Program-made: the position numbers and the translations under genes
Notes under the pieces: model-generated
The model's database searches: none
Seen by the model: the letters and a program-made list of their open reading frames with translations, nothing else
What the model was told of the DNA's origin: nothing
Part shown: positions 4,346-26,935 of the stretch, in pieces
Numbering within the stretch: position 1 is the stretch's first letter
Layout: the number at the start of each line of letters is the position of its first letter
NCBI GenBank assembly: GCA_035390665.1
Contig: DAOOUC010000002.1
Span: 60,001-92,000 of the forward strand
Direction of reading: 5' to 3'
From: an archaeon
GTDB taxonomy: Archaea; Iainarchaeota; Iainarchaeia; Iainarchaeales; CSSED10-239
Length of the DNA stretch: 32,000 nt

Positions 4346-4359
4346 TAACGGTGAAAATT

Positions 4360-4557
4360 ATGAAAAAAATAATAATATTAGGATTGATTTTAGGACTTAT
4401 TGTTTCTGGAATCTTTCTTGAAAATATAATAGACAATAAAGAGCAAAAAACAATAGAAACAACAGAACCAATATTTTTATCAGGAAAAGGCTGCAGAGCT
4501 TCTACAGTTTTTTTAAGAAATTCAAGTGGTACTACAAAGGTTCTTATTCTAAAATAG
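4360..4557 (+). CDS. Small hypothetical membrane-anchored protein
   Basis: The N-terminus is hydrophobic (MKKIIILGLILGLIVSGIFL). GGTGA at 4350-4354 lies 5 nt before the ATG at 4360. The ORF track starts at GTG 4351. I recognise no family. Confidence 0.4.
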   Translation: MKKIIILGLILGLIVSGIFLENIIDNKEQKTIETTEPIFLSGKGCRASTVFLRNSSGTTKVLILK

Positions 4558-4626
4558 TTTTTCCAGAAATGTTTATATTCTATTTGTTTCTTTAATATAT
4601 ACTAAAATATATTTTATTGATTAATT

Positions 4627-6054: not shown

Positions 6055-6059
6055 ATGGG

Positions 6060-8722: not shown

Positions 8723-8746
8723 AATCGTTTCCTTATATTAGTTGAT

Positions 8747-8983
8747 TTAATTAATATATTCTTGCAGAAACTGGTCGAATTCGACCAGTTTGAAATCAGG
8801 GTTATTTATTTTTTCCCACAATCCTAAAAATCTAATTGTTTCTTTAGATCTAATCCAATTTTTAATAACATCAGCAGGATGGTCGGAATTTTTATATTTT
8901 GCAATATCTGTTAATGATATATAATCGTCTTCATTTTTTGTATAATAAGATATTTTTTTGTTTAAAACACTTATTTCATTCAT
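8747..8983 (-). pseudogene. N-terminal fragment (78 aa) of a KilA-N domain protein, probably a truncated remnant
   Basis: YISLTDIAKYKN…VIKNWIRSKETIRFLGLWEKINNPDFK matches the N-terminal part of bacterial/phage KilA-N proteins as I recall them, which are normally about 250 aa. The frame stops after 78 aa, only 24 nt before radC. Confidence 0.5.
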
Positions 8984-8984
8984 G

Positions 8985-9983: not shown

Positions 9984-10169
9984 AGATATATTACTCTATC
10001 AAAACAGGAGTCATTTCCGGGAGGGTAGATGTCCAGTGGGTTGTTTATAAATCTTTGTTGTTTTTTTGAAATTTTACATCGTATTAATCTCAAAATCACA
10101 AAATTGTTTTTCTCGCACTGGACAACTGGTCCCAAAAACTATATATATTCTTTTAATCATAAATCTATT

Positions 10170-11384: not shown

Positions 11385-12551
11385 ATGTTTATAAATCATT
11401 TTTTGTATTATATTTTAGATAACATGGACGATAAAAATCAGATAAATATCCTAAACAGAAAATCACTTAATGTCAAAGAAGAAGATATAAAAGTTAAGGA
11501 AATTTCTAAAAAACAAATAAAGACAAAAATTGATCAAATATCAATATCTAATCCTAAAACAAAAAAAGAAATCACAAAACCAGAAGTTAAAGAAAAAAAA
11601 CCAATAACTATTAAAGAAATTATCTTTAGAATAACTAATTTCTTTGTAAGATTACCAACTTTTTTTGCAAGATTTTTAAGTACTTCTGGAAAGTTTATTT
11701 ATTATTCAATATTAGGAACAATGGTAAGTTTTTGTTTTGCAATTCTTTTATTTCCTGAAAATCCAGGATTATTTTCTGTTTTCTTTTTAACTATTTTTCT
11801 TGCTCCTTTTGTTATAAAAGAAATTAATCTAAATATCTTGCTAGTTGGAAGAACAAAACAAGTAGAACATAAAGGTGTAACAATTACAAGCTTTAAGATA
11901 AAAGACAATGAGCAATTCTCTTTAGAGGAATTCTATGAAGAAAACAGAAAAATGCTTTCTGCTTATTTTTTCTTTTTCTTAGGAATAATGCTTGTTGTTA
12001 TTGCTTTAATTGTTTTTATGCCAATAAGTCATTCATCAATTTTATTTAGTCAACAAGGTTGGAGTAATGCGTTAATGCCAACAAAAGATATTGGTTTTGA
12101 AGGGATAGATAAATGGGGCGTTTTCTTTGAGATTTTTAAAAATAATTTTTCAGTAATGATTGTTAGTTTCATTGTGGCTTTGGTTTTTCCATTGGGTGCA
12201 TTGTTGATGATAGTGTGGAATGCAATGTACTGGGCTGTTGCGTTTACACAATATGCTGTTGTTTATAGTTCTTCATATAATGTTAATCTTTTGTTTATTT
12301 TGTTGCCTTTGTTATTAAGTGTTGCCTTACACACACTTATAGAAGCCATATGTTATTTCTTTGCAGCAATGTCAGGAAGTACACTTTCTATTGGTTTTCA
12401 GAAGGAAAAATTAGATTCTGATAGATTTTTTTATATTTTTAAATATTGTTTAATATTAATGGCTTTTGCTGTTTTTTTCTTGATTTTAGGTTCTGTTGTT
12501 GAGGTATTTGTTTTTGATTTTTTAAAGAATTTTTTCTTTTCTTTTTTCTAA
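11385..12551 (+). CDS. Polytopic membrane protein, possibly SpoIIM/DUF95-like, with a Lys-rich N-terminal region
   Basis: There are multiple hydrophobic helices. The NNFSVMIVSFIVALVFPLGALLMIVWNAMYWAVAF pattern resembles stage II sporulation M-like proteins. An alternative start is the ATG at 11424 (MDDKNQ…). Confidence 0.45.
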   Translation: MFINHFLYYILDNMDDKNQINILNRKSLNVKEEDIKVKEISKKQIKTKIDQISISNPKTKKEITKPEVKEKKPITIKEIIFRITNFFVRLPTFFARFLSTSGKFIYYSILGTMVSFCFAILLFPENPGLFSVFFLTIFLAPFVIKEINLNILLVGRTKQVEHKGVTITSFKIKDNEQFSLEEFYEENRKMLSAYFFFFLGIMLVVIALIVFMPISHSSILFSQQGWSNALMPTKDIGFEGIDKWGVFFEIFKNNFSVMIVSFIVALVFPLGALLMIVWNAMYWAVAFTQYAVVYSSSYNVNLLFILLPLLLSVALHTLIEAICYFFAAMSGSTLSIGFQKEKLDSDRFFYIFKYCLILMAFAVFFLILGSVVEVFVFDFLKNFFFSFF

Positions 12552-12606
12552 ACAAATTCCTTTATATTTCTTTTTTTATATAAATATATTTAGTATTTCT
12601 ATTTTT

Positions 12607-12612
12607 AGGAGG
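12607..12612 (+). promoter_or_regulatory. Shine-Dalgarno AGGAGG 7 nt upstream of the 12620 ATG
   Basis: Read directly as …tttttAGGAGGaataattATG. Confidence 0.55.
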
Positions 12613-12619
12613 AATAATT

Positions 12620-13669
12620 ATGAAACATAAAAATAAAGAATCTGAAGAAGCTATAACAAGCCCACATCATTCTAAGAAAAAATTATTTATTTGGCAAATA
12701 ATTAGTGGAATATTATTTGTTGCATTAGTTATTACAATATTATTAGCCGTTATAAAACCAAATACAGATAATAAACTAGTTAATACAACAGAGACCACTG
12801 AAATAAATCAAAAAATAGTAACAGATACTGTTTCTTTTTTAAAAGATGCTTTTAGTCTTACAGATATAATAGTTAAAGACACAGTAATAGAAGACGGATT
12901 ATATAAAATAACTATATCAATAGAAGATCAAGAAATACCAATATATACAACTCTTTCTGGAGAAAATTTAATAATTCCTGGAATGGGTTTATTAAATAAA
13001 AAAGAAGCATTAGCACAAAAAGAAGAATCAGAAAAACCAGCAGAGGTTCAAAAATCAGATAAACCAAAAGTAGAAGTATTTGTAATGTCTCATTGTCCAT
13101 ACGGTACACAAATGGAAAAGGGATTAATTCCTGTTATTGAAACATTAAATGATAAAGCAGACATAGAAATTAAGTTTGTTGATTATGCAATGCATGGTAA
13201 AACTGAAGTTGATGAAGAATTAAATCAATACTGTATAAACAAAGAAGAACCAGAGAAATATATTCCTTACTTAAAGTGTTTCTTAGAGGAAGGAAAGACT
13301 GCTGATTGTTTAACAAGAGCTGAAATTGATACAACAAAAGTAAATGCTTGTCTTTCACAAACAGACACAGAATATAAAGTTACAGAATTATTTAATGATA
13401 AATCAACTTGGCAAGGCGGACAATTTCCACAATTTAATATTTACAAGGAAGAAAATGAATTATATGGCGTACAAGGCTCTCCAACAACAGTTATTAATGG
13501 TGTAAAAGTAGACAATATGCCAAGAGATTCTGCAGGGATATTAAACCAAGTTTGTTTAGCTTTCAATAATCAACCAGAAGAATGTCAAACAGAATTAAGT
13601 TCAACTGCCCCAAGTGCAGGATTTGGTTATGAAAGCACAGGAACAAATAATGCTGCAAGTTGTAGTTAA
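12620..13669 (+). CDS. Membrane-anchored thioredoxin-fold (DsbA-like) thiol-disulfide oxidoreductase candidate
   Basis: An N-terminal TM helix (LFIWQIISGILFVALVITILLAVI) is followed by a CxxC-type motif in thioredoxin context (VFVMSHCPYGTQMEKG) and a cis-Pro-loop-like GSPTTVING. Confidence 0.55.
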   Translation: MKHKNKESEEAITSPHHSKKKLFIWQIISGILFVALVITILLAVIKPNTDNKLVNTTETTEINQKIVTDTVSFLKDAFSLTDIIVKDTVIEDGLYKITISIEDQEIPIYTTLSGENLIIPGMGLLNKKEALAQKEESEKPAEVQKSDKPKVEVFVMSHCPYGTQMEKGLIPVIETLNDKADIEIKFVDYAMHGKTEVDEELNQYCINKEEPEKYIPYLKCFLEEGKTADCLTRAEIDTTKVNACLSQTDTEYKVTELFNDKSTWQGGQFPQFNIYKEENELYGVQGSPTTVINGVKVDNMPRDSAGILNQVCLAFNNQPEECQTELSSTAPSAGFGYESTGTNNAASCS

Positions 13670-13670
13670 A

Positions 13671-13686
13671 GGAAAAGTATTTTTCC
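13671..13686. terminator. Short hairpin (GGAAAA-GTAT-TTTTCC) plus T-run between convergent genes
   Basis: Read directly. It lies between the stop at 13669 (+) and the stop at 13691 (-). Confidence 0.35.
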
Positions 13687-13690
13687 TTTT

Positions 13691-13951
13691 TTATTTTTTC
13701 TCAAATAACAATTTTAGTGCTTCTTCTTCTGTTATGCCTTTGGCTTTTGCAAATCTTTGAATTATTTCTTTTATTACAAATTTAGTATAGTCTTTATTTC
13801 CTTTTCTTAGTATAAATTCGTTTCCATGTATATCTTTAAACTTTATGTGCTTGTGATTTACTTCATCTGCCTTAAATCCATTTCTTTCAAATGCTTTTCT
13901 AAGTTGAACAGTTGTTATTACAGGAATTTTTGCGTAATTTAGTTTAGGCAT
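13691..13951 (-). CDS. Small hypothetical protein, weakly HicA/YcfA-like
   Basis: In this 86-aa protein, LRKAFERNGFKADEVNHKHIKFKD loosely resembles the HicA L..L…GF……GSH pattern. No HicB-like partner is adjacent. Confidence 0.3.
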   Translation of the reverse strand: MPKLNYAKIPVITTVQLRKAFERNGFKADEVNHKHIKFKDIHGNEFILRKGNKDYTKFVIKEIIQRFAKAKGITEEEALKLLFEKK

Positions 13952-13957
13952 AATTAA

Positions 13958-14512
13958 TCATTCTAATTTATAGTTTTTTTTAATTTCTTCTAAAGTTATT
14001 TCTATAAATTTTTCAATAGGTAAATCAAGTGTTTTTTCACACAAATAGATTTGTTCTCTATTAACACCACAAGCAAAATACTTGTCTTTTAGTTTTTTAA
14101 TTATTGATTTTGTTTCTGCTTTTGTAATATCCTTATCTGGTCTCATCAAGACATAAGCCCTAATGATTCCAGTTAAACCATCAAGAGAATAAAGAGCATG
14201 TTGTAATTTTGTTTTTCTTTCAACACCAACCGCTTCATTATGGCTTTTGATGTCGTCAATCAGCTCTTGGTTAATTCCTTTTTTCTGAAGAATCTTTTCA
14301 GCAACAAGTGTATGTTGGTTGATATCTCCACCAAAACACTCTAAATCAAGATCATGAAGTAAGCCCACAACAAACCAATAATCTTTATCTTCTCCAAAGT
14401 AATTTGCAAGTCCTTGCATACCAAAACCAACAAGATAGCAATGTTCAAGATTTGCTTTTTCTTTAAGATGTTCTTTAAGCAAAGTGATTGTTTCTGTTCT
14501 GTTAGGAATCAT
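13958..14512 (-). CDS. HD-domain metal-dependent phosphohydrolase
   Basis: The 184-aa product has an early His (LEHCYLV) and the HD doublet (VVGLLHDLD). It lies 11 nt downstream of the giant gene stop and 6 nt upstream of the next gene. Confidence 0.68.
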   Translation of the reverse strand: MIPNRTETITLLKEHLKEKANLEHCYLVGFGMQGLANYFGEDKDYWFVVGLLHDLDLECFGGDINQHTLVAEKILQKKGINQELIDDIKSHNEAVGVERKTKLQHALYSLDGLTGIIRAYVLMRPDKDITKAETKSIIKKLKDKYFACGVNREQIYLCEKTLDLPIEKFIEITLEEIKKNYKLE

Positions 14513-14523
14513 AATTAATCAAA

Positions 14524-17500
14524 TTAATTAGTAAAAGGGTAAGTTAATCCATTTCCATTATTATAAAGCGTTGATATCTCTTCTGGAGTTAGTGTTCTTG
14601 TCCAAATACCAACTTCATCAACAGATCCATTTAAATCATAAGAAGAACTATCTTGCATACGCGCAATTCTTGTAGCAGTAGAATCTAAATTAAGCGAGGT
14701 TCTATTTACAGAGATCTTTTCAATACCATTAACAAATACTCTAATTGCACTTGTTGTGGAATTATAAGTCATAGCAATGTGAGTCCATTCTGCAATAGTA
14801 TTAACTCCTGTTGCCAAATCATATGCATAAAATCCTCCAGAATAAGAATTATTTGCGGTATTACTATTTGCATAATCATATGCTCCGGCGCCACCAATAA
14901 ATCCAATATGTGCTCCAAGATCAGCAGTAGATTTACCAATAGCAACAGCACCTTGTGTAGTATTTGTATTTAATTTAACCCAAGCACTTAATGAAAAATC
15001 AGTATTACCTGTAATTGTATTATTTCCAAGATTGACATAGTCTCCAGCTCCATCAAAGGTATATGCAGTTCCTATTTTTCCTGTTTGATTCTGTAATGTG
15101 TTACCTGCAATTGTTCCATTTCTAAATCCAGTACTATCTAAAACTGAACCAGAAGTTTCATCAAGATTATAATATGATAAAAGTCCAGTAGTAAGATTAC
15201 GATCATTATTAGAAATATTGTAATCTAAATTAACTGTATTAAACATCTTGTTGATGTCTTGATCATCAAATGATCTATTGTATAGTCTGAAATATTTCAT
15301 TGATCCTTTTGTATTTGTTATATCATCTTTTGAAGCAATACTCATTAACCAAGTTTTTGTATCAAAATTAAAGCAATTAAGATTTACAGAAATATCAATA
15401 CAGTTTTCTTTTTTACCATTAATATAATAACACAGATTCTTTCCTTTTCTTTGAATAACAAGATGTGTTGGTTTATCTTGAGAAATAGGCACAACTGAAG
15501 CAAAAGAAAATGGTAAATAACTATATCCAGAGGCATAACCATTATTTTCAGTTAACATATCTGATTTATTTCTTCTAACAACCCTGTTATTTAAGGTATC
15601 TCCAACATATATGTAATCATTATCTACAGAAACACTGGCAGGGTTATAAAAATTTAAATAGCCTTGACCGTAATTTCCAATTTTTCCTATATAAGATAAA
15701 TCTCTTTTATCAAACACCATTATTCTATTATTTGCATAATCTGCAGCATAAAGATAGTTCTCATCTAAAGCAAGTTCATATGGCGCACCATAGACATATT
15801 GATTATAACTTTGTGTAAAATATCTTCCATCAAAATAATTTTGATCATATCCAGTTATCTTTGCAACAACTATATAATCGCTTTTCCTTATTTTTTTAAT
15901 AGAAAAAGACAATGTTTCAGAAACATAAAAATAATTCTCATCAACGGCCACACCGTATGGTCCATAATAACTATTTCCGTGCATTCCATAATCTCTTGCA
16001 ATAAATGATAAATCTGATTTATTGTGTATCTTAATACTTCCAGAAGAATAATCTGCAATAAACAACTCATTTCCAAAAAGATTAATACCGTATGGGCCAT
16101 AAAATTGATTATTTCCCGTACCTGCACTTGTTCCTCCAATACCGCTCACAAACGACAAATCACTGGCTAATAATTTTTTAATTCTATGATAACTTGCATC
16201 TGTAACATAAACGTTTGTCCCATCAGAGGCAACACTATAAGGATTATAGAACTTATCGGTTGTGGCTCCAAGAAGTGGACCACCGAAACGTGCAAGAAAT
16301 GAAAAATCGGTTTTATTTCTTTTTACTACACTATGATTTGCAGTATCTACGACATAAATAGAATTATCATCTACAAAAACCCCTCTTGGATTAAGATATT
16401 GATTTTCTCCAAATGATCTTTCTCCATATGTTCTTAAATAATTAAGATTAGTATCAAGTACTTGTATTCTGTAATTGCCAGTATCAGGAACATATATCTC
16501 TCCATTACAAATACTTAATCTTCCGGGACTATAGAAACTGTTGTTGTCGTTATTATATGTCGTTCCTCCAAGCTTACCAATATATTGGTATGTAAACTTA
16601 TTATATTTAACAATTCTGTGATTAGTATAATCAGAGACATAAATATAATTATCATCGACAGTAATCCCATCAGGATTTCTAAAATAATTTGCGTCTCCTG
16701 TTCCAGAAGTTCCAAACATTGTTACATAAGCATACGGAGAATTTTTATTATGTATTTTGATTCTATTATTTGTATAATCTGCAACATAAATATAATTGTT
16801 ATCTACTGCAACATCTTGTGGACCATTAAAATTTGCAGTTCCTGAGCCAACGGTTCCAAATTGATTAACATAAGATAAATCTGATTTATTATGTATCTTA
16901 ATTCTATTGTTACTGGTATCTGCAACATAAACATAAGTACCATCTACTGCAACACCTCGGGGGTATGTAAAATTTGTGTTTCCAGTACCGGAACCACCAA
17001 TAGCAGTAATTTTAGATAAATCAGATATATTTCTTTTAGTTAGAATGTGTGCTGAATAATCAGTTTGATAAATATAATTTTCATCAACAGCAATTCCTGA
17101 AGGTGTAGAAAAATCATTTGGATAAGTAGGGGATGCAGACAAATATTGTCTTCCATTTACTACTTCTGCAGTTCCCGTAGTTTTATTTAATTTTACTAAT
17201 CTGTTATTAGCGGTGTCTGTAATATAAAGATAATTCGTATCACAAGAAACAGCATTTGGTTGGTTATATTGATTATTATTCATTGCACCGAAGTTATTAT
17301 TGTCATATAGAGCCCCACTAATTAAAACATTTTGATCAATTAAATTTCTGTCATAAACAACAATTCTTCTATTTGCTGTGTCAGTAACATAAATTTTATC
17401 AGGAGAGACAGCAACACCCCAAGGGCCATATAATTCTGAAGGCATATACCCTAATGTTCCAAAAGTTGCCATGTCACTTAAAAAGAAATTATTTTTGTTA

Positions 17501-19947
17501 ATTTTTTTAATTCTATGGTTACCACTTTCTGCAACATATAAATCATTCCCATCTAATGTCATAAGATAAGGAGTATTAAATGCTTCTGTTGTTGTTGTTG
17601 CATAATTCCAGCCATAGTTTGCTACAAAAGAAAGATCTGATTTATTTAATACTTTTATTCTGTGACAACTTGCATCTGTAACATACACATAATTTTCATC
17701 AACAGCAATTCCGGTAGGATAATTAGTTTGTGTAGCACCACATCCATAATTAGTATAATTACTATCTGTGGTTTTTGCAACAAAAGCAAAAGTATTTTTA
17801 TCGTGTTTCTTCACTCTGTGGTTTCTGCCGTCGGTAATATAAATATAATTTTCATCAACAGCAACCCCCCTAGGTAAATAAAATCCTTCATCTGTTGTAG
17901 TACTTGAAGTACCAAAAGCAGTTGAGTAACTTAAATCTGATTTATTTAATCTTAATATTCTTGAATTTCCATAATCCACAACCCAAAGATAATCTCCATC
18001 AACAGTAAGATCATAAGGACTATTAACTCCTGTAGTTCCACTTCCTGCTGCAAGAGATTTTAATCCAAACATAGCAACAGTTTCAAGATTATCTGCTCTT
18101 TTCTTAATAATTCTAGAATTACCGTAATCAGAGATATAAATATATCCATCCTCGTAAGTTATTCCGTATGGAGTTAAAAGATTATCAGGATCAGCAATTC
18201 TTAGATTATATTGATTTTCTGGAAATCTTGAAACAAAATTAAGATTTTCATCTGATTTAATAATTCTGTGATTTGAAGAATCTGCAGTATAAACAAAACC
18301 ATCAGAATCAGCGGCTATAGAAATAGGATAAATAAATCTATTAAAATCGTTTCCAGAAGTGCTTCCACTTGAAGGTCTTATAGATAAAAGTGTCCATGTG
18401 CCTTTTTCATATTTTTTTATTCTGTGGTTTCCATATTCTGCAACATAAAGATAATTATTATCAACATATATTCCAACAGGTGTATTAAAATTAGTTGCAA
18501 CATTATTTGCGGTGCCTGTTGTTCCAAGATGAGTAACATATGTTAGATCATATTTATTTCTTATCATTACACGATGGTTTCCGCCATCTGCAATATATAA
18601 ATAATTATCATCAACATCTATTTCTCTTGGAGTACTTAATTGATCTTGTCCGGCACCAGCAGTATATCCGCCATAATGATTGACATAACTAAAATCATCC
18701 AGTTTTCTTACCATAATTCTATGATTTCCAGAATCAGATATATATAAATTATTGCCGTCTGTTGCAACGCCACGAGGATAACTTAAACCATTTATACTTG
18801 TCGTACTTCTTGCAACACTTAGTTTTCTAACAAATGACAAGTCATCTTTTCTAAATATTTTAATTTGTGCAAGACTGGAAGACCCATAATCAACAACATA
18901 TAAATAATCTCCATAAATTGCAATTTGAAAAGGATTAATAAATTCATAATCTCCTGATGAATTCATAGGAAATCCAATATGCTTAACATAGGAGTAATCT
19001 GATTTATTTAGTTTAATTAATCTAAAAAAAGAATCAATGTAATAGATATAATTATCATCTACATTTATGCTTAAAATTAAATAAGGGATTTCTATTCCTT
19101 GAGCATAAGTGTTTATTATTCTGTTACTATCTATATAGATATCCAGTCCACCAATTCTGGCGGTTTTACTAAAAAGATATCCAGAATAATTATTATCAAT
19201 TAATGTTTCAATTGTAAAGTCATTATTTCCAAGCATTAAATCTTTATCAATTTCTATTTTTGAAGATACCCCGTTAAAATTTGCACCATTACTATCAAAA
19301 GTGATATCTTCTACAATTTGTCTAAATGATTCTGATCCTTGATTAAAGTTATTTCCTTTAGTAAAATCAAAATTTAAAATAAGATTTGAATCATAATTTT
19401 CAACAACAAATAAATTTTCATCAGATTCATTTTCAAAATAATAATTTGGATCTAAGTTAGGGGACATTTTTTCAATATTAATAATAGGTATATTAGTATT
19501 TTCTGAAATAATTAATTTTAATTTTTGATTATTATTTACTATAAGACTCTCATTAAGATCTATAATCCCATTTAAATTTAATTTATATTCAATATCTGTA
19601 TTTTTTTTAGTAATTGTAATATTTTCAAAAATTTGTTCTTTAAATTCTTTAGATTCATTTTTAAGTGGTTGAATTATTGTTATTGTATTTGTAATTGCGT
19701 CAAAATTAATTTCATGATCTGTTTTTATATTTAGGTAAATAAAAGAATTATTAGTTAATCCTTTTAATTCTAAAAATTGTTGATTTATATAAAATAAATT
19801 TTCCTTGTTTTTTCTATAATTTAAAGAATCTGTAAGGTTATTAAAAAAAGGAGAAACTAATGCTAATATACTAATCATAACAACTACAGATAATACTAAA
19901 ATCAGTATGCCGGTAACGAGAGAGGTTGCCCCTTTTTTAGTTTTCAT
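14524..19947 (-). CDS. Giant (1807 aa) pilin-like surface protein: class III signal peptide, a LamG-like domain interrupted by about 24 NHL repeats, and a C-terminal LamG domain
   Basis: The N-terminus is MKTKKG|ATSLVTGILILVLSVVVMISILALV. There are 24 repeats of about 48-50 aa with the NHL signature (e.g. LYISDSGNHRIMVRKLDDFSYV, VYVADTSNNRIKIHNKSDLSYV). The C-terminal LamG reads FSLSAWVKL…WTHIAMTY…VFVNG…GSVDEVGIWTRTLTPEEISTLYNNG. Confidence 0.88.
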   Translation of the reverse strand: MKTKKGATSLVTGILILVLSVVVMISILALVSPFFNNLTDSLNYRKNKENLFYINQQFLELKGLTNNSFIYLNIKTDHEINFDAITNTITIIQPLKNESKEFKEQIFENITITKKNTDIEYKLNLNGIIDLNESLIVNNNQKLKLIISENTNIPIINIEKMSPNLDPNYYFENESDENLFVVENYDSNLILNFDFTKGNNFNQGSESFRQIVEDITFDSNGANFNGVSSKIEIDKDLMLGNNDFTIETLIDNNYSGYLFSKTARIGGLDIYIDSNRIINTYAQGIEIPYLILSINVDDNYIYYIDSFFRLIKLNKSDYSYVKHIGFPMNSSGDYEFINPFQIAIYGDYLYVVDYGSSSLAQIKIFRKDDLSFVRKLSVARSTTSINGLSYPRGVATDGNNLYISDSGNHRIMVRKLDDFSYVNHYGGYTAGAGQDQLSTPREIDVDDNYLYIADGGNHRVMIRNKYDLTYVTHLGTTGTANNVATNFNTPVGIYVDNNYLYVAEYGNHRIKKYEKGTWTLLSIRPSSGSTSGNDFNRFIYPISIAADSDGFVYTADSSNHRIIKSDENLNFVSRFPENQYNLRIADPDNLLTPYGITYEDGYIYISDYGNSRIIKKRADNLETVAMFGLKSLAAGSGTTGVNSPYDLTVDGDYLWVVDYGNSRILRLNKSDLSYSTAFGTSSTTTDEGFYLPRGVAVDENYIYITDGRNHRVKKHDKNTFAFVAKTTDSNYTNYGCGATQTNYPTGIAVDENYVYVTDASCHRIKVLNKSDLSFVANYGWNYATTTTEAFNTPYLMTLDGNDLYVAESGNHRIKKINKNNFFLSDMATFGTLGYMPSELYGPWGVAVSPDKIYVTDTANRRIVVYDRNLIDQNVLISGALYDNNNFGAMNNNQYNQPNAVSCDTNYLYITDTANNRLVKLNKTTGTAEVVNGRQYLSASPTYPNDFSTPSGIAVDENYIYQTDYSAHILTKRNISDLSKITAIGGSGTGNTNFTYPRGVAVDGTYVYVADTSNNRIKIHNKSDLSYVNQFGTVGSGTANFNGPQDVAVDNNYIYVADYTNNRIKIHNKNSPYAYVTMFGTSGTGDANYFRNPDGITVDDNYIYVSDYTNHRIVKYNKFTYQYIGKLGGTTYNNDNNSFYSPGRLSICNGEIYVPDTGNYRIQVLDTNLNYLRTYGERSFGENQYLNPRGVFVDDNSIYVVDTANHSVVKRNKTDFSFLARFGGPLLGATTDKFYNPYSVASDGTNVYVTDASYHRIKKLLASDLSFVSGIGGTSAGTGNNQFYGPYGINLFGNELFIADYSSGSIKIHNKSDLSFIARDYGMHGNSYYGPYGVAVDENYFYVSETLSFSIKKIRKSDYIVVAKITGYDQNYFDGRYFTQSYNQYVYGAPYELALDENYLYAADYANNRIMVFDKRDLSYIGKIGNYGQGYLNFYNPASVSVDNDYIYVGDTLNNRVVRRNKSDMLTENNGYASGYSYLPFSFASVVPISQDKPTHLVIQRKGKNLCYYINGKKENCIDISVNLNCFNFDTKTWLMSIASKDDITNTKGSMKYFRLYNRSFDDQDINKMFNTVNLDYNISNNDRNLTTGLLSYYNLDETSGSVLDSTGFRNGTIAGNTLQNQTGKIGTAYTFDGAGDYVNLGNNTITGNTDFSLSAWVKLNTNTTQGAVAIGKSTADLGAHIGFIGGAGAYDYANSNTANNSYSGGFYAYDLATGVNTIAEWTHIAMTYNSTTSAIRVFVNGIEKISVNRTSLNLDSTATRIARMQDSSSYDLNGSVDEVGIWTRTLTPEEISTLYNNGNGLTYPFTN
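15553..19080 (-). repeat. Coding tandem array of about 24 NHL (beta-propeller blade) repeats, period about 145-150 nt
   Basis: I counted 24 occurrences of the blade signature [GSTA]-N-[HNSR]-R-[IV]-x-[KV]… followed by D-L-S-[YF]-V between residues ~290 and 1465. Neighbouring blades 15 and 16 (about 16740-16940) are still visibly similar at the DNA level. Confidence 0.8.
19852..19947 (-). other. Class III (type IV pilin-like) signal peptide of the 1807-aa protein
   Basis: A short basic N-terminus is followed by KG|A and then a ~25-residue hydrophobic helix. Confidence 0.65.
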
Positions 19948-19996
19948 AATATTATCATATATTATATACTAAAATATATTTATATTTCTTTTTAAT

Positions 19997-22900
19997 TTAA
20001 GAAAAAGTATAAAAAAGATTAGGAGAATATTGATTTATATATTCTGCATTTTTCCAAGCATCTGATCTTATTGTTTTTTCAACTCTTATTTCATCTACAT
20101 ATCCATCCCAATAATAAGAGGAAGTTCCACAAATGTATGGGAAATCAGTAGTATTTGTCCACACAAAACCATTAGTATCATAAACAATTTCATTATTAAC
20201 AAAAAATTTGCTATTTGTTGGAGAATTTTTGTTAATTGTTAAAACTAATTTTGTCCAATTTGTTGTTGCAGGAGAAGAAGAGGCTGCCTGAACAGTGTCT
20301 CCGATTCCTCTTGACCAAGTAGAGTTAGTTGTTCCAAGATAAATTCTTGCAGCCGCAGGAGTAAAAGAAGAAAAAGGTAGTGCTAATTTTGAAATTATAT
20401 TTGTTTTTGCCCAAAGGCTTACTGTTAATAAATTATTATCGTTTATTTCTGATAAAGATATTGGTGCAATAATATAATCATTAAATCCATCACAAAGTAC
20501 AGAATCACCAAAAAAACCTTCTGTTTTAAATTTAGATTTTGGAGTATTATCAAATAGATAAGGCGTTGCTATTACTTTACCTGTTGAATCTTTCAAACTT
20601 GATTGATTATTTTGAATAATTTCATCATCAAAATGTTCAACATAAAGATAATTTTCGTCCCAAACATCTGTGGAATTGTCTTCAGAAACATCGCTACCAA
20701 AATACATATAGATATTCGTATCTTGTGTTGATGAAAGATTAGGGATCTTTACCCATGCAATCACTCTAGTATTTGTGGTATTTGTTGTGCTATTTGGAGT
20801 AGGTGTCGTAGTATATTCTATCTTTAAACTTTCGGATTTAGAAGTAATTGGAATTGTAGTGGTTGGTATTTTTACTTGATAATTGTTTAAATCATCACTT
20901 GTTGTATTTTCAATTGTAATTGTATAGTTGTCTCCATTATCAATCACATTTACTGTTGGCTCAACAGGAACATATTTTCTTACATAGATATAATCAAATT
21001 CTGTATCTCCTATATCTGTTGCAGCACCACTAAATTGTCCAAGATGAATATAGTTTATATTTCTTGTAAATGTAGTAGTAGAAGGATAACTATAAATTGT
21101 GGAATTGTCCATATTTAAATCAAAGGTATTAGTTTTTGTAATAATATCAAATAAGTAATATTGATCTAAAGTTATTACACTTGCAAAAGAAGTATTTGTG
21201 ACATTGTGACTTCCTGCGGTTCCATTTCCTGCAAAAACATGTAAATTTAGATTGTTTACTCCTTTCATTGTTTCAATTTGCGCTTCTGAGGTTGTATTAC
21301 CGCTTGCAGTAAAAGTTGCTGAAGAAATACCTGGCATTGTTCCACCGTAATTAGCTGTTTGATTTATATTTTTAGAGCGAGATCTAATAATATAATTGTC
21401 TTGTAAATTGATGGATAATGGATTAGTTAAAGTTACAGCACCTACATTAATTCTTAGAGTTTCTCCAGAAGAAACATAAGTTGGTGTAGTTCCATTTGTC
21501 CATTTTCCTAAATCTAATTGTGCAGAAGTAAAATCATCAAAAAAATCAAACACACGGTCCCCATTAGGAATATATCCACTTTCTTTTGTTATTTTTAAAG
21601 TTCTAGTGGTATTAGCTGGAATTGTTTGTTTAATAAAAATAAATTTATTTGTTCCATCGTCTTCAATGTAGTAAGGAATTGTTCTTTCTTCTATAAACCC
21701 AATTGCAGTTAATGGTAGTTCTTCTACTTTTAGACTTTCTGTTTTGGTTGTAATTCCAATAATATTATTAGGTATAGACACCTGGTAATCTGTAAGATTA
21801 TCAGAAGAGCCATTAGTTATAACAATTTCATAAAAATTATCATTATCATAAACATCAACCCAAGGCACTTTATATGCATATTTTCTTACAAAAACATAAT
21901 CCACATACATCTCAGCAGCAGCTGGTTGTGTTCTTAGATTAAAATATCCTGTTTCATTAAAACAACGTTGGGTGTTTGTGGTTAAAAATCCACTATCATT
22001 AACTAGCGCTCCATTATCATCATAAACAACTTGTCTTACCTTATAAGTATTTTCATCAGTAATTGTTGCATCAAAATTTAAATATCTTCCATTTGCTGAA
22101 GATATTGTGCTTGCATATATTGCCGCCGCGCCACAATAATTACTTGCAAAGATTTCATAATTTGTAGTGTTTATATTTGTTCCAAAACCAATCCCTTTAT
22201 TATAAGTATATCCACAGGTTGCGCAATCAGCCATTACATGCATTGCACAATCTAGACTGGATGTGTTTGTTACAGGATACATTCTCATCTTAAATATTTT
22301 ATTATAAGAATTTAATTTATTTTTTGAAACAATATAAGCCGTTGTTCCATTTAAATAAATGTTTTGATCATTTTCTGCAGGTAAAGGAAATCCATTAATA
22401 TATCCCCACTTATTTGGGTCAATAGACCAATCATCAAAATCATCAAAGAATTCAAAAACATAATCTCCATTTGGAGAATATCCCGGAGTCTTTGTAATTT
22501 TTATTTTTCTTGTAGTGTTAGCAGGAATACTTGTTTTTATCCAGATTTTTTTATCTACATTAAGATCTTCAATATAATAATCTATTATTTTTGAATTAGA
22601 GGTTAAAGCTAAACTAGATGGTTTAATTACTTTTTCAATTTCTCTGTCTAATTTATTTCCAAAAGAGTCAATAAAGATTATATCTTTTCCATCATCTTTT
22701 GCTATTAGAAGTTTTAAATCACTTATATCTATTAACATTGGAAAGTTAGTTAAATCTTCAGTAATATAATCTTTGTTTATTGTTATTTTTAATCTATTTG
22801 ACCAATTTGAAGAATACCACGAATTAACTTCATCAATATCGGTGTTTTTATAAATATCAATTGATATCTCATCTAAATCTTCATCATATGCTTGATATTT

Positions 22901-23338
22901 TAAAGCTATTTGATTTTTTCCTAAATTAAACATTATATCTTTACAATTCAATTGTATTCTTTCAAGATTATCTAAATCTTTTTCAAAATAGATTTGATTA
23001 TTTTTCTTATAGGTTACAATATCATTAATTACTGTTTCATCTGTTCTATATTCTCCAGAATAATTAATTTTTCCAATAATCTGGTTATTTGTACAATCTA
23101 TTTCTATTTCTCCGGGATTATAAAAATTAAACTCAGTAGTTTGTTTATTTGAAATTGTGTCATTAAGTGCAAGATTAAATTTATCAAAATAATCAATCAT
23201 AGTTTCATAATTTGCTTTTTCTTTGCTTTTTGAGATAAGATCTATAGCAGAAGTTGTAACCATTGCTATGATTACAAAAGAGATTAATAGATAAGCCATT
23301 GTTGTAATAAGATTTGCTGCACCTTTTTGATTATTCAT
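19997..23338 (-). CDS. Pilin-like surface protein (1113 aa) with DUF2341-like modules, a duplicated ~290-aa ConA-like module and a C-terminal LamG domain
   Basis: The N-terminus is MNNQKG|AANLITTMAYLLISFVIIAMV. The DUF2341-like segment is NWSNRLKITINKDYITEDLTNFPMLIDISD…DGKDIIFIDSFGNKLDREIE. The duplicated segments are YYIED…IPANTTR.(I/L)KITK..GY.PNGD.VF.FFDDF … Y(V/I)(F/Y)VRKY. The C-terminus reads VIAWVKIPNLSSTQDTNIYMYFG…VWDENYLYVEH … DGYVDEIRVEKTIRSDAWKNAEYINQ. Confidence 0.86.
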   Translation of the reverse strand: MNNQKGAANLITTMAYLLISFVIIAMVTTSAIDLISKSKEKANYETMIDYFDKFNLALNDTISNKQTTEFNFYNPGEIEIDCTNNQIIGKINYSGEYRTDETVINDIVTYKKNNQIYFEKDLDNLERIQLNCKDIMFNLGKNQIALKYQAYDEDLDEISIDIYKNTDIDEVNSWYSSNWSNRLKITINKDYITEDLTNFPMLIDISDLKLLIAKDDGKDIIFIDSFGNKLDREIEKVIKPSSLALTSNSKIIDYYIEDLNVDKKIWIKTSIPANTTRKIKITKTPGYSPNGDYVFEFFDDFDDWSIDPNKWGYINGFPLPAENDQNIYLNGTTAYIVSKNKLNSYNKIFKMRMYPVTNTSSLDCAMHVMADCATCGYTYNKGIGFGTNINTTNYEIFASNYCGAAAIYASTISSANGRYLNFDATITDENTYKVRQVVYDDNGALVNDSGFLTTNTQRCFNETGYFNLRTQPAAAEMYVDYVFVRKYAYKVPWVDVYDNDNFYEIVITNGSSDNLTDYQVSIPNNIIGITTKTESLKVEELPLTAIGFIEERTIPYYIEDDGTNKFIFIKQTIPANTTRTLKITKESGYIPNGDRVFDFFDDFTSAQLDLGKWTNGTTPTYVSSGETLRINVGAVTLTNPLSINLQDNYIIRSRSKNINQTANYGGTMPGISSATFTASGNTTSEAQIETMKGVNNLNLHVFAGNGTAGSHNVTNTSFASVITLDQYYLFDIITKTNTFDLNMDNSTIYSYPSTTTFTRNINYIHLGQFSGAATDIGDTEFDYIYVRKYVPVEPTVNVIDNGDNYTITIENTTSDDLNNYQVKIPTTTIPITSKSESLKIEYTTTPTPNSTTNTTNTRVIAWVKIPNLSSTQDTNIYMYFGSDVSEDNSTDVWDENYLYVEHFDDEIIQNNQSSLKDSTGKVIATPYLFDNTPKSKFKTEGFFGDSVLCDGFNDYIIAPISLSEINDNNLLTVSLWAKTNIISKLALPFSSFTPAAARIYLGTTNSTWSRGIGDTVQAASSSPATTNWTKLVLTINKNSPTNSKFFVNNEIVYDTNGFVWTNTTDFPYICGTSSYYWDGYVDEIRVEKTIRSDAWKNAEYINQYSPNLFYTFS
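23249..23338 (-). other. Class III (type IV pilin-like) signal peptide of the 1113-aa protein
   Basis: MNNQKG|AANL is followed by a hydrophobic helix. Confidence 0.6.
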
Positions 23339-25830
23339 GATTTTTCTAAGACTCCGACTTTAATAAATGCTTCAGGAATAGATTGATTATTAAATTCTGT
23401 TTTAATCCAGGAGTCAGATCTTGCAACATCTGATACTTTAAATTCATCAATAATTCCTGAGAATGCAAATGAATCTGCATAACCTAGTCTTAATGGGCTG
23501 GTATTTAATTTTATATTTACGTCTCTGTTTTTTTCTTCTTTTTGTCCATTAACAAAAATATATTCTTTATTTTCATCTATATTGTATCTATAGACAATAT
23601 GTGCAAATTCATTTGTTGGAACACGATTAGAGGAAAATAGGTTGCTTGTTGGTTGATTTTGTATTAAAATTGAACCAGGTCCATTTAACACAAATCGGCC
23701 AAAATTATTATATCTTTCATCTCCAAAAATCAAAGCATAACCTCCATTTGTTTCTCCAGTAAAATTTACCCAAACAGAAATTGTTTGATAATTCCAATCA
23801 TTGTTATATATTGTTCCAAATTCAACATAGTTACTACTTGCTAATGAAGGATAACCTCCGTCTAAAATAATTTTATGTTTGTTTGCTCCTCCAATTTGTC
23901 CATCTGTACTTGTTGTTGAATTAATATTATCAAATCCTTTTGCTATCCCTGTAAAATTATTTTTAGTAGAATCTATAAATCCATTTTCATCATTATTTGG
24001 ACTTTCATTTAGATGTTGTACCATAATAAACCCATCATCCCACACATCTTTGTCATTACTTTCATTTGCAGTTTCATTTCCAAAGTACATATAGATTGCA
24101 GTATCTTCTTCTGTAGTTAACTCAGGAATCTTAACCCAAGCAAATACTTCTGAGTGAGGAGTTAAAATTGTTTCTAATTCTCCAATAGAGTAAAAGTTTT
24201 CAGGAGCTGATTGATTATTGTATTCTGTTTTTATCCAAGATTCTGATCTCGTAATATTTGAGATACGTACTTCGTCTATTGGGCCATTATAATAATATCC
24301 ATCATTTCTTTTTCCAAAGAAAGTTATTCCTATGTTTGTGCCATTAGTTCCAGCAGTAGCTACCCCCAATAAATTTCCATCTATATAGAAATTATAGTCA
24401 TTAGAATTTACTTTTGTTATAGTTAGATATTTCCAGGCATTTTCCTTTGTCCAATTAAGTGTAACATAACCAGCGCTTCCATTATAAACTAAAAAATTAG
24501 TTCCATTATATCTTATACCAGTACCAGACCCCCCTAAAAAATATTGAATGTCAGTAACTGAATTTAAATTTGTCCACAAAGATGCGGTTTGAATAGAGGA
24601 TGTTAGAATTGTTATGTAATCATCTCCAAGATAAGCTTGTGCTTTCCCTATTTTTCCAGTAGTTTCAATAGGATTATTTGCAGATACTTTTGTTCCGATG
24701 TTATTATTCAAAGTACTATCTGCAATTGTTGTACTGTTATAATCGTTACTATGCCACACCCCAACATAATTACTATCCCAAACATTTGTGTCATTTGTGT
24801 TATTTTCCTCTGAGTTTCCAAAATACATGTAGATGTCTGTATTTTCTATTGAAGAAAGACTTGGAATCTTTACCCAAGCAACAAGCGAACCTGTTGTTGA
24901 ATTATAATCTTCTATTTCTCTTTTTAATCTTGTTCCATCACTACTAGTAAAATAAATATCTCTTCCATCACTTTGAGCATAGGTTTTAAGATCAGAATCT
25001 AGTAAAGAAACAAGCATTGGAAAATCTGTTAAGTCTCCATCTACTTTATCTTTGTCAATAGTTATTTTCTTTCTATATTCATAATTTTCTCTTAGAGAAT
25101 AACTTTCAATTTCTCTTTTTAATTTAGTTTTTCCGTCCTTAGAGGTAAAGATAATATCATTTCCATCAGAATTAGCATAATTCTTAAGATCTTGGTCTTC
25201 AAGATATATTAAAGCAGGAAAGTTTGTAAGATTGCCGTCTACTTTGTTTCCATCAATTAATATTTTCTTTCTATATTGCCAAGTGCTTGGAGTTTCATCA
25301 TACAACCCTAAGTTAGAAGCAGTAAACCAGTCATCTTCGATTACATTTTCTAAAAGTATAGTTATTTTATCTTTGTCTGTCTTTCTTAAATAGATTGTTG
25401 CATTAAGTTGATTTTCAAGAATATAAGATCTTACTAAATCAATATTACTTAAAGTAAAACCAGCATATAGTTTTTGTCCATTTCTATAGGTGTATTTCTC
25501 TGAGGTGTCGTCTAGTCTTAAATTATCTTTATAAAAGTCTCCATTAATTATACTATATACTTCAATTGTATTTGTATTTGAATCAATAATTAGAGTTAAG
25601 TTTTCTAAACTTAGTTCAATTTCTTTAGTATAACCAATAGGGCTATTATAAACTTCTTGAATATTATTGTAAAGATTATCTCTTAATCTTTTTGATTCTT
25701 CAAATTTCAGCTGAGATTTACTTGTTGTTATTTGCGGAATTAAAGCAGTTAATATTATTCCAATCACAACTACAGTTATTAGCATTAATAATATCTGACT
25801 AATTATTTCTGAAGTTCCTTTATTATTCAT
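23335..25830 (-). CDS. Pilin-like surface protein (831 aa) with tandem DUF2341-like modules and two LamG domains
   Basis: The N-terminus is MNNKG|TSEIISQILLMLITVVVIGIILTAL. Two tandem copies read (W/Y)(Q/E)YRKKI.ID..KVDG.LT.FP…SDG.DI.FTS.DG…LKREIE. Two LamG ends read IDEVRISNITRSESWIKTEYNNQ and IIDEFKVSDVARSDSWIKTEFNNQ. The stop overlaps the next gene's start in an ATGA at 23335-23338. Confidence 0.86.
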   Translation of the reverse strand: MNNKGTSEIISQILLMLITVVVIGIILTALIPQITTSKSQLKFEESKRLRDNLYNNIQEVYNSPIGYTKEIELSLENLTLIIDSNTNTIEVYSIINGDFYKDNLRLDDTSEKYTYRNGQKLYAGFTLSNIDLVRSYILENQLNATIYLRKTDKDKITILLENVIEDDWFTASNLGLYDETPSTWQYRKKILIDGNKVDGNLTNFPALIYLEDQDLKNYANSDGNDIIFTSKDGKTKLKREIESYSLRENYEYRKKITIDKDKVDGDLTDFPMLVSLLDSDLKTYAQSDGRDIYFTSSDGTRLKREIEDYNSTTGSLVAWVKIPSLSSIENTDIYMYFGNSEENNTNDTNVWDSNYVGVWHSNDYNSTTIADSTLNNNIGTKVSANNPIETTGKIGKAQAYLGDDYITILTSSIQTASLWTNLNSVTDIQYFLGGSGTGIRYNGTNFLVYNGSAGYVTLNWTKENAWKYLTITKVNSNDYNFYIDGNLLGVATAGTNGTNIGITFFGKRNDGYYYNGPIDEVRISNITRSESWIKTEYNNQSAPENFYSIGELETILTPHSEVFAWVKIPELTTEEDTAIYMYFGNETANESNDKDVWDDGFIMVQHLNESPNNDENGFIDSTKNNFTGIAKGFDNINSTTSTDGQIGGANKHKIILDGGYPSLASSNYVEFGTIYNNDWNYQTISVWVNFTGETNGGYALIFGDERYNNFGRFVLNGPGSILIQNQPTSNLFSSNRVPTNEFAHIVYRYNIDENKEYIFVNGQKEEKNRDVNIKLNTSPLRLGYADSFAFSGIIDEFKVSDVARSDSWIKTEFNNQSIPEAFIKVGVLEKS
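25738..25830 (-). other. Class III (type IV pilin-like) signal peptide of the 831-aa protein
   Basis: MNNKG|TSEI is followed by a hydrophobic helix, with Glu at +3 after the predicted cleavage site. Confidence 0.6.
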
Positions 25831-25918
25831 ATTAAAAATATATTTTAGTTAATTATTACTATAATATATAATATATTTAGTCTTTTAAATGTTTTGGATA
25901 TTAAATATTATAGAAAGT

Positions 25919-25991
25919 GGTCCGAATAGTGTAGTGGTTAGCATAGAGGACTGTGGATCCTCTGACTCGGGTCCAAATCCCGGTTCGGACC
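25919..25991 (+). tRNA. tRNA-His (anticodon GTG) with encoded G-1 pairing to C73; no encoded CCA
   Basis: Folded by hand. The acceptor is GTCCGAA/TTCGGAC with an extra 5' G opposite C73. The D-arm is GTGT/GCAT. The anticodon arm is GAGGA-CTGTGGA-TCCTC. The T-arm is TCGGG-TCCAAAT-CCCGG, and the T-loop reads TCC where TTC is expected. Confidence 0.85.
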
Positions 25992-26015
25992 TATTTTAAT
26001 AAATATAGAACTATC

Positions 26016-26567
26016 ATGTCTTGGGAAATTGCTGAAAGGCCAGGGTACTTAGGAAAGAAAAGAGACGAAGTATATGCCATTTGGGATAATCTTTATGGTA
26101 AAGACAATTGGAAAATTGCATATCAGTGGGGTAATCAAATAATTTCTAAAGAAGAAGGCATTCAGGTTTATGAAGATGCCTATTATGAATATTTAAAAAA
26201 TAATCCATTAATACTTGAGTGGTTGACAAAAAGGGCATCAGATATTTTTGATACTGCACCAACAAATACAAATTCAGGATTGGATTATAATAATCAAGAA
26301 ACTCCAAATAACCATATACACGACATAGCAATAAAAAAAGCAGTTATAAGAAATAACACAACATTTCAAGGAAATCAGGTAATGGAAGTCAGATGGACAG
26401 ATAGTGAAGGATTTTTTCTTAATCCCGGAATTGTTCCATTTCACAAACCCGAAATGATATTAAAAGAAGAAATAAAAGATTATGGAAATAAAGGAATTTG
26501 GTGGAAAGAAAACACCATAGAAGACTTTTACCAAAGAAATAAAGTATTATTAATGAGGAAAATTTAA
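26016..26567 (+). CDS. Hypothetical protein (183 aa)
   Basis: The open frame has typical local codon usage (MSWEIAERPGYLGKKRDEVYAIWDNLYGKDNWKIAYQWG…). The ORF-track start at 25953 lies inside tRNA-His, so I trimmed to the ATG at 26016. I recognise no family. Confidence 0.5.
   Translation: MSWEIAERPGYLGKKRDEVYAIWDNLYGKDNWKIAYQWGNQIISKEEGIQVYEDAYYEYLKNNPLILEWLTKRASDIFDTAPTNTNSGLDYNNQETPNNHIHDIAIKKAVIRNNTTFQGNQVMEVRWTDSEGFFLNPGIVPFHKPEMILKEEIKDYGNKGIWWKENTIEDFYQRNKVLLMRKI

Positions 26568-26861: not shown

Positions 26862-26935
<74 letters not shown>

Follow-up and report, generated by a model that had tools for sequence, protein, structure and literature searches.

Large archaeal lectin and propeller proteins with pilin-like N-terminal modules: a candidate modular minor pilin triad

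What are giant lectin-like and propeller proteins doing behind the leader peptide of a type IV pilin? Three consecutive genes, which we call A, B and C, raise this question in a 32,000-nucleotide (nt) stretch of archaeal DNA (the window: positions 60,001 to 92,000 of contig DAOOUC010000002.1). The original prediction took them for a pilin-anchored or pilus-incorporated adhesin system. We lean towards the view that A, B and C are a triad of paralogous, modular, minor pilin-like proteins that are cleaved by an A24 peptidase, cap or prime a pilus-like fibre, and display lectin and propeller adhesins. The gene calls were reproduced at their predicted coordinates, as three co-directional minus-strand genes of 831, 1113 and 1807 amino acids (aa). 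In the lines below the arrow marks the putative cleavage site.

Gene A: 23335-25830, minus strand; open reading frame (ORF) call of 831 aa with the leader MNNKG↓T; pilin-like module at residues 1-~163 (nt 25342-25830), linker at 164-181, then two DUF2341 + Laminin_G_3 units.
Gene B: 19997-23338, minus strand; ORF call of 1113 aa with the leader MNNQKG↓A; pilin-like module at residues 1-~175 (nt 22814-23338), then three DUF2341, each with a beta-rich domain of ~230 aa.
Gene C: 14524-19947, minus strand; ORF call of 1807 aa with the leader MKTKKG↓A; pilin-like module at residues 1-~165 (nt 19453-19947), then a split LamG-like domain, an NHL array and a C-terminal Laminin_G_3.

The junctions are also as predicted. 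A and B share an ATGA start/stop overlap at 23335-23338, a 49-nt AT-rich spacer lies between B and C, and C is followed after 11 nt by an HD phosphohydrolase gene and then, after another 6 nt, by an 86-aa ORF. A repeat-rich region of this kind invites the suspicion of misassembly. We rule this out for the NHL repeats because identical A and C proteins are present in independent assemblies, namely two JGI metagenomes of anaerobic digesters (3300009838 and 3300025706) and the Logan assembly SRR4244739.

Class III leaders and a pilin-like module

The leaders quoted in the original prediction are correct: each is short and basic, ends in K-G and is followed by a hydrophobic helix. The cleavage-site context is K-G↓T in A and K-G↓A in both B and C, and at least 20 uncharged hydrophobic residues follow in each. 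An archaeal class III signal is expected to have G, A or S at -1, a charged residue at -2 and a site placed before the hydrophobic domain (PMC4371748), and all three proteins show these three features when they are checked directly on the sequence. We also searched all window ORFs of 40 aa or more, taking each possible start in turn, for [KRDE][GA] close to the N-terminus with a long hydrophobic stretch free of charged residues after it. A, B and C were the only window proteins that qualified; one further match was internal to the peptidase gene. Each of the three has one hydrophobic segment, and it is always the N-terminal one.

The prepilin peptidase that had been predicted in the same window is confirmed by Pfam, and has both D26/D34 and the GGGD84 motif.

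6060-6893, plus strand: A24 (FlaK/PibD-type) prepilin peptidase, 277 aa; Pfam Peptidase_A24 at 43 bits against a cut-off of 26.5.

It lies ~7 kb from the nearest gene of the operon, a position that is kept in the related locus L018, and it is a candidate processing enzyme for A, B and C. FtsY, SRP54 and the peptidase are adjacent and co-directional (window 2855-6893, plus strand), and L018 keeps this arrangement as well (10439-14509). Since type IV pilin precursors have been reported to depend on the signal recognition particle (SRP) (PMC4371748), this adjacency puts genes for class III targeting and for processing in one cluster.

The original prediction held that the three proteins carry their large domains instead of a small pilin domain, and in this it was mistaken. 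Each protein has a pilin-sized module at residues 1-~165, predicted to consist of a long N-terminal helix, hydrophobic at first and then amphipathic, and a beta domain; the same module is found as a stand-alone protein in relatives. Residues 1-170 of A, modelled with AlphaFold, have a pLDDT of 83.5 and form a helix (4-61, 57 residues) followed by eight strands. The AlphaFold (AF2) model of full-length A, which was the one protein modelled, has a pLDDT of 85.9, with a helix at 5-61 and a beta module to 159; a flexible linker at 164-181, where pLDDT falls below 50, separates the module from the cargo. A and B are similar over their first ~240 residues (27% identity), and the N-terminal module of C matches a profile made from the A and B modules. 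A modular pilin has been defined as an N-terminal pilin module that a linker connects to domains without a specific tie to pilus biology (PMC8179133), and the corresponding parts here are the module at 1-~165, the linker at 164-181 and a cargo of DUF2341, Laminin_G_3 and NHL domains.

How widespread is the module? An exhaustive search of 1.84 billion representative proteins with the A/B-module profile found 385 relatives, most of them of 160-190 aa; ~16% are long and carry the module at the N-terminus. The C-type ortholog P0011 matched the profile in this library with an E value of 3.7e-6. A word-indexed homologue search with the B module gave one protein (P0121). Among the relatives the cargo includes Laminin_G_3, DUF2341, CHB_HEX_C_1, Fn3_assoc, DUF285, fibrinogen-C and others. 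A cleavage-motif screen was passed by 132 of 145 family members. K or R stands at -2 in 112 of these 132 and G or A at -1 in 125, fractions that are partly built into the screen, whose rule admits only G, A or S at -1 and polar or charged residues at -2. Q at +1 (65 of 132) and E at +5 (61 of 132) are also common, giving KG↓QVWIETV, the motif of Methanococcus Epd pilins. DUF7289 is matched by 31 of the 145 relatives (best E value 1.6e-49) and Pilin_N by 6 at E values below 0.01. The weak matches to curated models and to PDB are all to pilins: TIGR02537, ComGC, ComGD, UpsA, PilA, PilE1 and geopilin.

The family is also found beside the pilus machinery itself. A metagenome scan with a pilus ATPase alignment recovered 80 pilus loci, and in 58 of the 64 that have enough upstream sequence a family member ends no more than 150 nt from the ATPase start. 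A profile built from the modules of the triad clade alone matches ORFs in 67 of the 80, with E values down to 1e-14. Family members P0172 and P0148 stand immediately 5' of a T2SSE ATPase gene; the P0172 loci have two T2SSF platform genes after the ATPase and small Pilin_N genes before it. We consider it very probable, from these sequence relationships, that the modules of A, B and C are divergent members of this pilus-operon family of pilin-like proteins.

Some pilus loci of DPANN type, L015 (2233-10000) and L022, consist of five consecutive class III-type small genes, a T2SSE ATPase with a UCP018868 domain and two T2SSF genes. This layout matches the 'two platform proteins' arrangement described for archaeal system 1/4A (bioRxiv 10.64898/2026.04.22.720090).

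A conserved triad with exchangeable cargo

Is the triad peculiar to this window? Related loci were found through the conserved HD neighbour; a scan of genome contigs with full-length A gave no relative. The three-gene order that the original prediction described is conserved, and A-B-C is found in the following loci:

L005/L009: A of 991 aa, B of 167 aa, C of 633 aa.
L010: A of 999 aa, B of ~170 aa, C of 1726 aa with an NHL array.
L018: A of 185 aa, B of 165 aa, C of 1057 aa.

The same order is probably kept in L021, where three consecutive genes beside RadC and PDDEXK genes encode a 1085-aa A-type protein, a 475-aa LamG protein and a protein of at least 625 aa (the module type was read for the first gene). 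With the window included and L021 aside, A ranges from 185 to 999 aa, B from 165 to 1113 and C from 633 to 1807. Stand-alone orthologues of the B module, of 164-171 aa, are P0121 and the B proteins of L005, L010 and L018. The surroundings are shared too. In the relatives the triad lies in a neighbourhood of SpoIIM, PDDEXK nuclease, RadC, TGT, A24 peptidase and SRP54 genes at the same chromosomal position, and the order in L018 is SRP54-A24-TGT-RadC-PDDEXK-SpoIIM-triad, as it is in the window.

What do the modules carry? Above its gathering cut-offs Pfam finds DUF2341 (PF10102, 62.2 bits) and Laminin_G_3 (PF13385, 78.1 bits) in A, in two units. It finds DUF2341 in three stretches of B (71.8 bits), and NHL (PF01436, 285.4 bits) and Laminin_G_3 (90.9 bits) in C. 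The predicted lectin and propeller cargo thus stands for A and C and in part for B, where DUF2341 is present but Pfam detects no Laminin_G_3. The C-terminal 250 aa of B resemble the DUF2341-LamG unit of A (BLAST E value 3e-20), so the third of the ~230-aa domains of B is LamG-like by similarity to A; the other two have no family assignment.

Gene C has the most unusual arrangement. By an iterated self-HMM (hidden Markov model) its NHL array comprises 24 blades at residues 292-1476 (nt 15520-19074). A LamG-like domain lies in two pieces on either side of the array, at residues 176-291 and 1477-1577. The C-terminal piece alone matches only positions 69-150 of Laminin_G_3, whereas the spliced halves match positions 2-150/151 at 27.8 bits. 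Because the spliced flanks cover Laminin_G_3 from end to end, we conclude that the NHL array is nested inside the LamG-like domain. The C orthologues of L010 and L008 have the same nested arrangement. A second LamG domain, Laminin_G_3, follows at residues 1632-1792 (nt 14572-15054), and the cargo beyond the pilin-like module comes to ~1,640 residues.

It could be argued that such proteins are secreted or surface enzymes for polymer degradation, with the ConA-like domains acting as glucanases and the NHL domains as lactonase/arylesterase-type or peptide-modifying catalysts. The ConA-like superfamily does include glucanases, C has a weak Arylesterase match (36 bits), and the cargo of relatives includes the chitobiase-associated CHB_HEX_C_1 and Fn3_assoc. 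However, CHB_HEX_C_1 and Fn3_assoc are accessory rather than catalytic. The Arylesterase match, in which no single stretch passes, and a TEN_NHL match are what general similarity among NHL propellers would be expected to give. Neither Pfam nor NCBIfam detected a catalytic domain family in A, B or C. The Foldseek neighbours of the full-length A model are laminin LG domains, the receptor-binding Hc domain of clostridial neurotoxins, a sialidase lectin domain and the CBM-like domain 4 of GH43. Since these are receptor- or glycan-binding jelly rolls, the cargo looks like a set of binding modules, and we believe the enzymatic explanation is very improbable. A phmmer search of PDB sequences with full-length A and B gave nothing significant.

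The loci also differ in ways that bear on how the cargo evolves. The pilin modules are 40-45% identical between genomes, against 61-92% for neighbouring genes, and cargo architectures differ between close relatives whose SRP54 is 92% identical. In the DUF2341 repeats of L005, a stretch of 497 nt in gene A is 81% identical at the DNA level to one in gene C (10835-11329 against 14220-14714), and the pilin modules of the same two genes are far more divergent than these repeats. This identity suggests recent duplication, exchange or gene conversion of cargo within the L005 operon. In the window, A and B share one 64-nt stretch at 81% DNA identity. Because the same three modules stand in the same order, and often alone as proteins of 165-185 aa, what stays constant, as far as these gene comparisons go, is the set of three pilin-sized modules, and the cargo can be left out or swapped.

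Pilus fibre or membrane anchor

The architecture, family relationship, synteny and rapid divergence of the triad are observed directly. How might these proteins work? We propose that the pre-proteins would be inserted through SRP and Sec, and that the A24 peptidase encoded 7 kb away would cut after the Gly. The N-terminal helices would then hold the three pilin modules together as a heterotrimer that serves as a cap or priming complex, on the model of PilA/PilB/PilC of Streptococcus sanguinis or of GspI/J/K. This complex would be lifted to the tip of a fibre or short stalk by a type IV pilus ATPase and a platform whose genes lie elsewhere in the genome, and the cargo would bind glycans or proteins on a host cell or substrate. 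The conserved core would be the triad of modules, and fast exchange of cargo between lineages would retune the specificity of binding. We favour a complex of this kind because of the fixed A-B-C order and the cargo-free subunits found in the same slots. The general idea of the original prediction, that a reduced archaeon shows lectin and propeller domains on its surface by means of pilin-type N-termini, is supported by the family motifs, the association with pilus operons, the syntenic A24 peptidase and the DPANN-like host; its statement about the small pilin domain did not survive.

Several points speak against our proposal. Cleavage, complex formation and adhesion are steps that we infer. 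The curated pilin models fall short on A, where Pilin_N (PF07790) scores 14.7 against 25.2 bits and TIGR02537 (arch_flag_Nterm) 16.8 against 20. Neither has a match on B or C, whose weak matches are solely to ComGD and UpsA. DUF7289 (PF23960) scores 24.6 bits (E value 2e-5) on the A module against a cut-off of 27, with no match on B or C. PDB matches of the module profile are weak and confined to the helix, and a Foldseek search of PDB with the module model gave no significant solved pilin, the matches being to beta-sandwich structures and non-significant. As the original prediction had noted, the window holds no T2SSE or T2SSF gene, and no ATPase or platform gene lies in the ~4 kb readable beyond it or beside the triad in any related locus. 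None of the 80 pilus loci is on a contig of the window's relatives, in a scan that stopped short of the relevant contigs. No family member in these 80 loci bears a large cargo, which means that no modular form was seen next to the machinery. Pilus machinery is not encoded by every DPANN archaeon (bioRxiv 10.64898/2026.04.22.720090). Since DUF7289 stays below its cut-off on these modules while 31 of the 145 profile relatives match it, the modules of A, B and C are best described as divergent DUF7289 relatives and not as scored members, to go by the profile scores.

The low scores might be taken to mean that the proteins have nothing to do with pilins. They would then be ordinary Sec signal-anchor (type II) proteins, in which K-G is an incidental product of the positive-inside rule and an AT-rich genome. 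The curated pilin HMMs that are all below threshold on A, B and C, and the missing significant match to a solved pilin structure, are what this explanation expects, and DUF2341-LamG homologues in other lineages mostly do have ordinary Sec signals. We find it improbable all the same. K or R at -2 and G or A at -1 predominate throughout the family, and distant members have the +1 Q and +5 E of known archaeal pilins. The homology to the neighbours of pilus ATPases is significant (E down to 1e-14 in the locus search), the motif is limited to A, B and C among the window proteins, and the A24 peptidase is syntenic.

A more serious rival accepts the pilin-type N-terminus but treats it as an anchor only. 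The proteins would never be extracted into a fibre, and the helix would hold them in the membrane, singly or in a short bindosome-like raft, as a lectin and propeller coat, A24-processed or not, on a cell perhaps without an S-layer of the usual kind. What favours this explanation is that no machinery gene accompanies the triad, either here or in related loci, and that the cargo is so large: the ~1,640 residues of the C cargo would be hard to pass through the envelope on a fibre. Cargo-bearing members are unseen in the 80 pilus operons, and the sole hydrophobic segment is the N-terminal helix, hence an anchor at least transiently. Archaeal substrate-binding proteins are known to use class III signals without forming filaments (PMC4371748; bioRxiv 10.64898/2026.04.22.720090). 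Yet neither the conserved beta domain of ~100 residues behind the helix nor the three distinct paralogous modules, whose order is kept from genome to genome, would be required of a plain anchor. Members of this module family are also a constant part of pilus operons. The cargo-free forms of 165-185 aa in the same slots make no sense as adhesin anchors and do make sense as minor pilins. We regard the anchor as a real possibility, though on balance an unlikely one.

Known systems help to place the triad that we propose. The original prediction knew of no characterised system of this composition, which is an overstatement since the PilA/PilB/PilC tip complex of S. sanguinis is known (PMC9934059). 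That complex is built from a small pilin and two modular ones, of which PilC bears a ConA-like lectin (PMC9934059, PMC8179133). In both systems three proteins with class III signals start with a small pilin module, and bulky modules are attached to it by a linker. The PilC lectin belongs to the same superfamily as the LamG cargo, adhesion is proposed for both, and one small plus two modular subunits is exactly what L005 and L010 have. The differences are that the S. sanguinis system is bacterial, has an N-methylation-type motif and lies in the pil locus beside the machinery, with cargo of ~300-400 aa compared to as much as ~1,640 aa here. The window triad has cargo on all three proteins and no adjacent ATPase and is known from genes alone, and the likeness comes without demonstrated sequence homology.

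Modular pilins are widespread in bacteria, and Laminin_G_3 (PF13385) is listed among their additional carbohydrate-binding modules (PMC8179133). They share with the triad the combination of a pilin module with domains that are not specific to pilus biology (PMC8179133). The survey that described them started from the bacterial signature IPR012902 and thus did not count archaeal proteins of this kind; its most extreme multi-domain case has 860 residues, and an NHL array within LamG is not described there (PMC8179133). We would not expect this signature in archaea. Among archaea, large DUF2341 proteins in the type IV pilus loci of methanogens (arCOG03508, MJ1470-like) were predicted in 2016 to be tip adhesins (PMC4858521). 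These have the same archaeal cargo domain, a link to type IV pili by context and a proposed place at the pilus tip. Unlike the triad, they are encoded within pilus loci, and the role proposed for them was that of an accessory adhesin of PilY1 type rather than a pilin. Here the DUF2341 cargo is fused directly to a pilin-like module, in genes that lie apart from the machinery.

In bacterial T4aP (type IVa pili), PilY1/PilC is a beta-propeller adhesin at the tip, presented by the assembly-priming minor-pilin complex PilVWX (HIJK). A propeller shown at a pilus tip by a minor-pilin complex is the point of likeness. PilY1 is not a pilin, however, and its propeller is of another family, whereas in gene C the NHL array is covalently joined to the pilin-like subunit. 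The C-terminal propeller of Neisseria_PilC/PilY1 has no Pfam or NCBIfam match on A, B or C, whose propellers are NHL-type. The bindosome and other class III-signal substrate-binding proteins also use such signals to bring non-pilin domains to the surface, and need a PibD-type peptidase (PMC4371748; bioRxiv 10.64898/2026.04.22.720090). They differ in that they bind solutes for uptake and are not a conserved triad of paralogous modules. To our knowledge they are without the full pilin beta domain.

What is new here, then, is the direct fusion of cargo to archaeal pilin-like modules and a conserved three-module DPANN operon away from the machinery. New as well are a plug-in cargo that varies between close relatives, and the extreme size and nested LamG::NHL arrangement of C. 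The triad is most likely an archaeal version of a design known from bacteria.

Neighbouring genes, host and significance

The features that border the operon are these:

25919-25992, plus strand: tRNA-His (GTG anticodon), directly upstream of gene A; boundary of the locus.
25831-25918, minus strand: presumed promoter region of the operon, AT-rich, 88 nt, between gene A and tRNA-His.
13958-14512, minus strand: HD/HDIG phosphohydrolase, 184 aa; Pfam HD 28.7 bits, TIGR00277 31.6 bits.
13691-13951, minus strand: 86-aa ORF; HicA_toxin 17 bits against 27, B3 20 bits against 30.

The upper limit that had been given for the operon, 25918, abuts the tRNA-His gene. A listed ORF at 25953-26567 (GTG start) overlaps this tRNA gene, which means that the N-terminus given for the ORF is probably not genuine. 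Further on, 26862-26935 holds a tRNA-Thr gene.

Are the two downstream genes part of the operon, as the original prediction suggested? It is plausible that the HD gene is co-transcribed with the triad, being kept in 4 of 5 related loci; the adjacency of the 86-aa gene is not conserved. The HD gene stands behind the triad in the window and in L005/L009, L010 and L008, with L018 as the exception, and its protein is 73-76% identical between genomes, compared with the 40-45% of the pilin modules. We reject a general functional link between HD and pilin genes: a distant homologue in a Pacearchaeota metagenome-assembled genome lies beside LysRS and not beside pilin genes. The 86-aa ORF had been called HicA-like, a label that its sub-threshold score (17 against 27 bits) does not bear out. 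It is absent downstream of HD in L005, L009 and L010, and no HicB-like neighbour was identified. With a match below threshold and a gene that is not conserved, we reject a functional HicA link as well. In assembly L002 (6181-7002) gene calling gives a single in-frame product of 273 aa for the HD gene and the 86-aa ORF together (compare window 13691-14512), which would be a read-through or fusion variant across the 6-nt gap.

An inverted repeat of 9 perfect bp (AAAGGAAAA / TTTTCCTTT) with a 4-nt loop, followed by a T-run, spans 13667-13695. It is located at the 21-nt gap between two convergent genes, 12620-13669 (plus strand) and 13691-13951 (minus strand), and from its sequence is likely to be a transcription stop shared by both. 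The first of these genes encodes a membrane-anchored thioredoxin-like protein with a weak GILT/Thioredoxin_2 match and a CPYG motif, and 11385-12551 (plus strand) encodes a SpoIIM-family membrane protein. Both genes flank the triad in all related genomes. A role of their products in the folding or export of Cys-containing surface proteins is possible.

A conserved block beside the locus (8033-11384) contains RadC, a YhcG/DUF1016 PD-(D/E)XK nuclease and a PDDEXK_1/Cas4-like nuclease. Near this block the relatives have variable acquisitions, namely PIN/RHH, Fic, KilA-N and integrase genes, and restriction-modification genes lie upstream of gene A in L004/L005. Because variable genes have been acquired there in relatives, the triad may sit at the edge of a variable genomic region. 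A TGT homologue of 366 aa (Pfam TGT 442 bits) is encoded at 6932-8032 (plus strand); archaeosine TGTs usually have extra C-terminal domains.

Whose genes are these? The window is archaeal, with ~28% GC and genes for S19e, L31e, eIF6, prefoldin, FtsY and SRP54. The named proteins closest to its SRP54 come from Candidatus Iainarchaeum (63%), Diapherotrites (50-54%) and Micrarchaeota (53%), and in one relative the triad locus is part of an 813-kb contig. These data suggest as host a DPANN archaeon with a small genome.

Contact with other cells is believed to be essential to DPANN archaea, and few of the molecules that make it are known. The locus is a concrete candidate for such molecules, with a conserved set of three gene modules, a variable cargo and a peptidase nearby. 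A bolder reading is that the triad is a rapidly re-armed organ of host recognition, a universal three-subunit cap with sockets for cargo that is swapped to set the range of hosts or substrates, and a machine that displays subunits of up to 1,807 residues. By analogy with the exchange of phage tail fibres, cargo swapping and gene conversion within the operon may be how it is re-armed. We think this reading is doubtful. If it is true, an archaeal type IV machine extracts the equivalent of four six-bladed propellers (24 NHL blades), a load far greater than that of any pilin with demonstrated assembly. There is recent evidence that ultrasmall Saccharibacteria use type IV pili to bind their hosts, and our reading of the triad parallels it (PMC12206443).

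Should the proteins turn out to be anchors only, they would represent a second non-filament use of archaeal class III signals besides the bindosome. If instead the pilin triad that we favour is true, the principle of modular pilins, which is established in bacteria, would extend to archaea and would show how far the size of the cargo can be pushed. The module profile and the K-G leader would then serve as handles for finding host-recognition genes in uncultured archaea.

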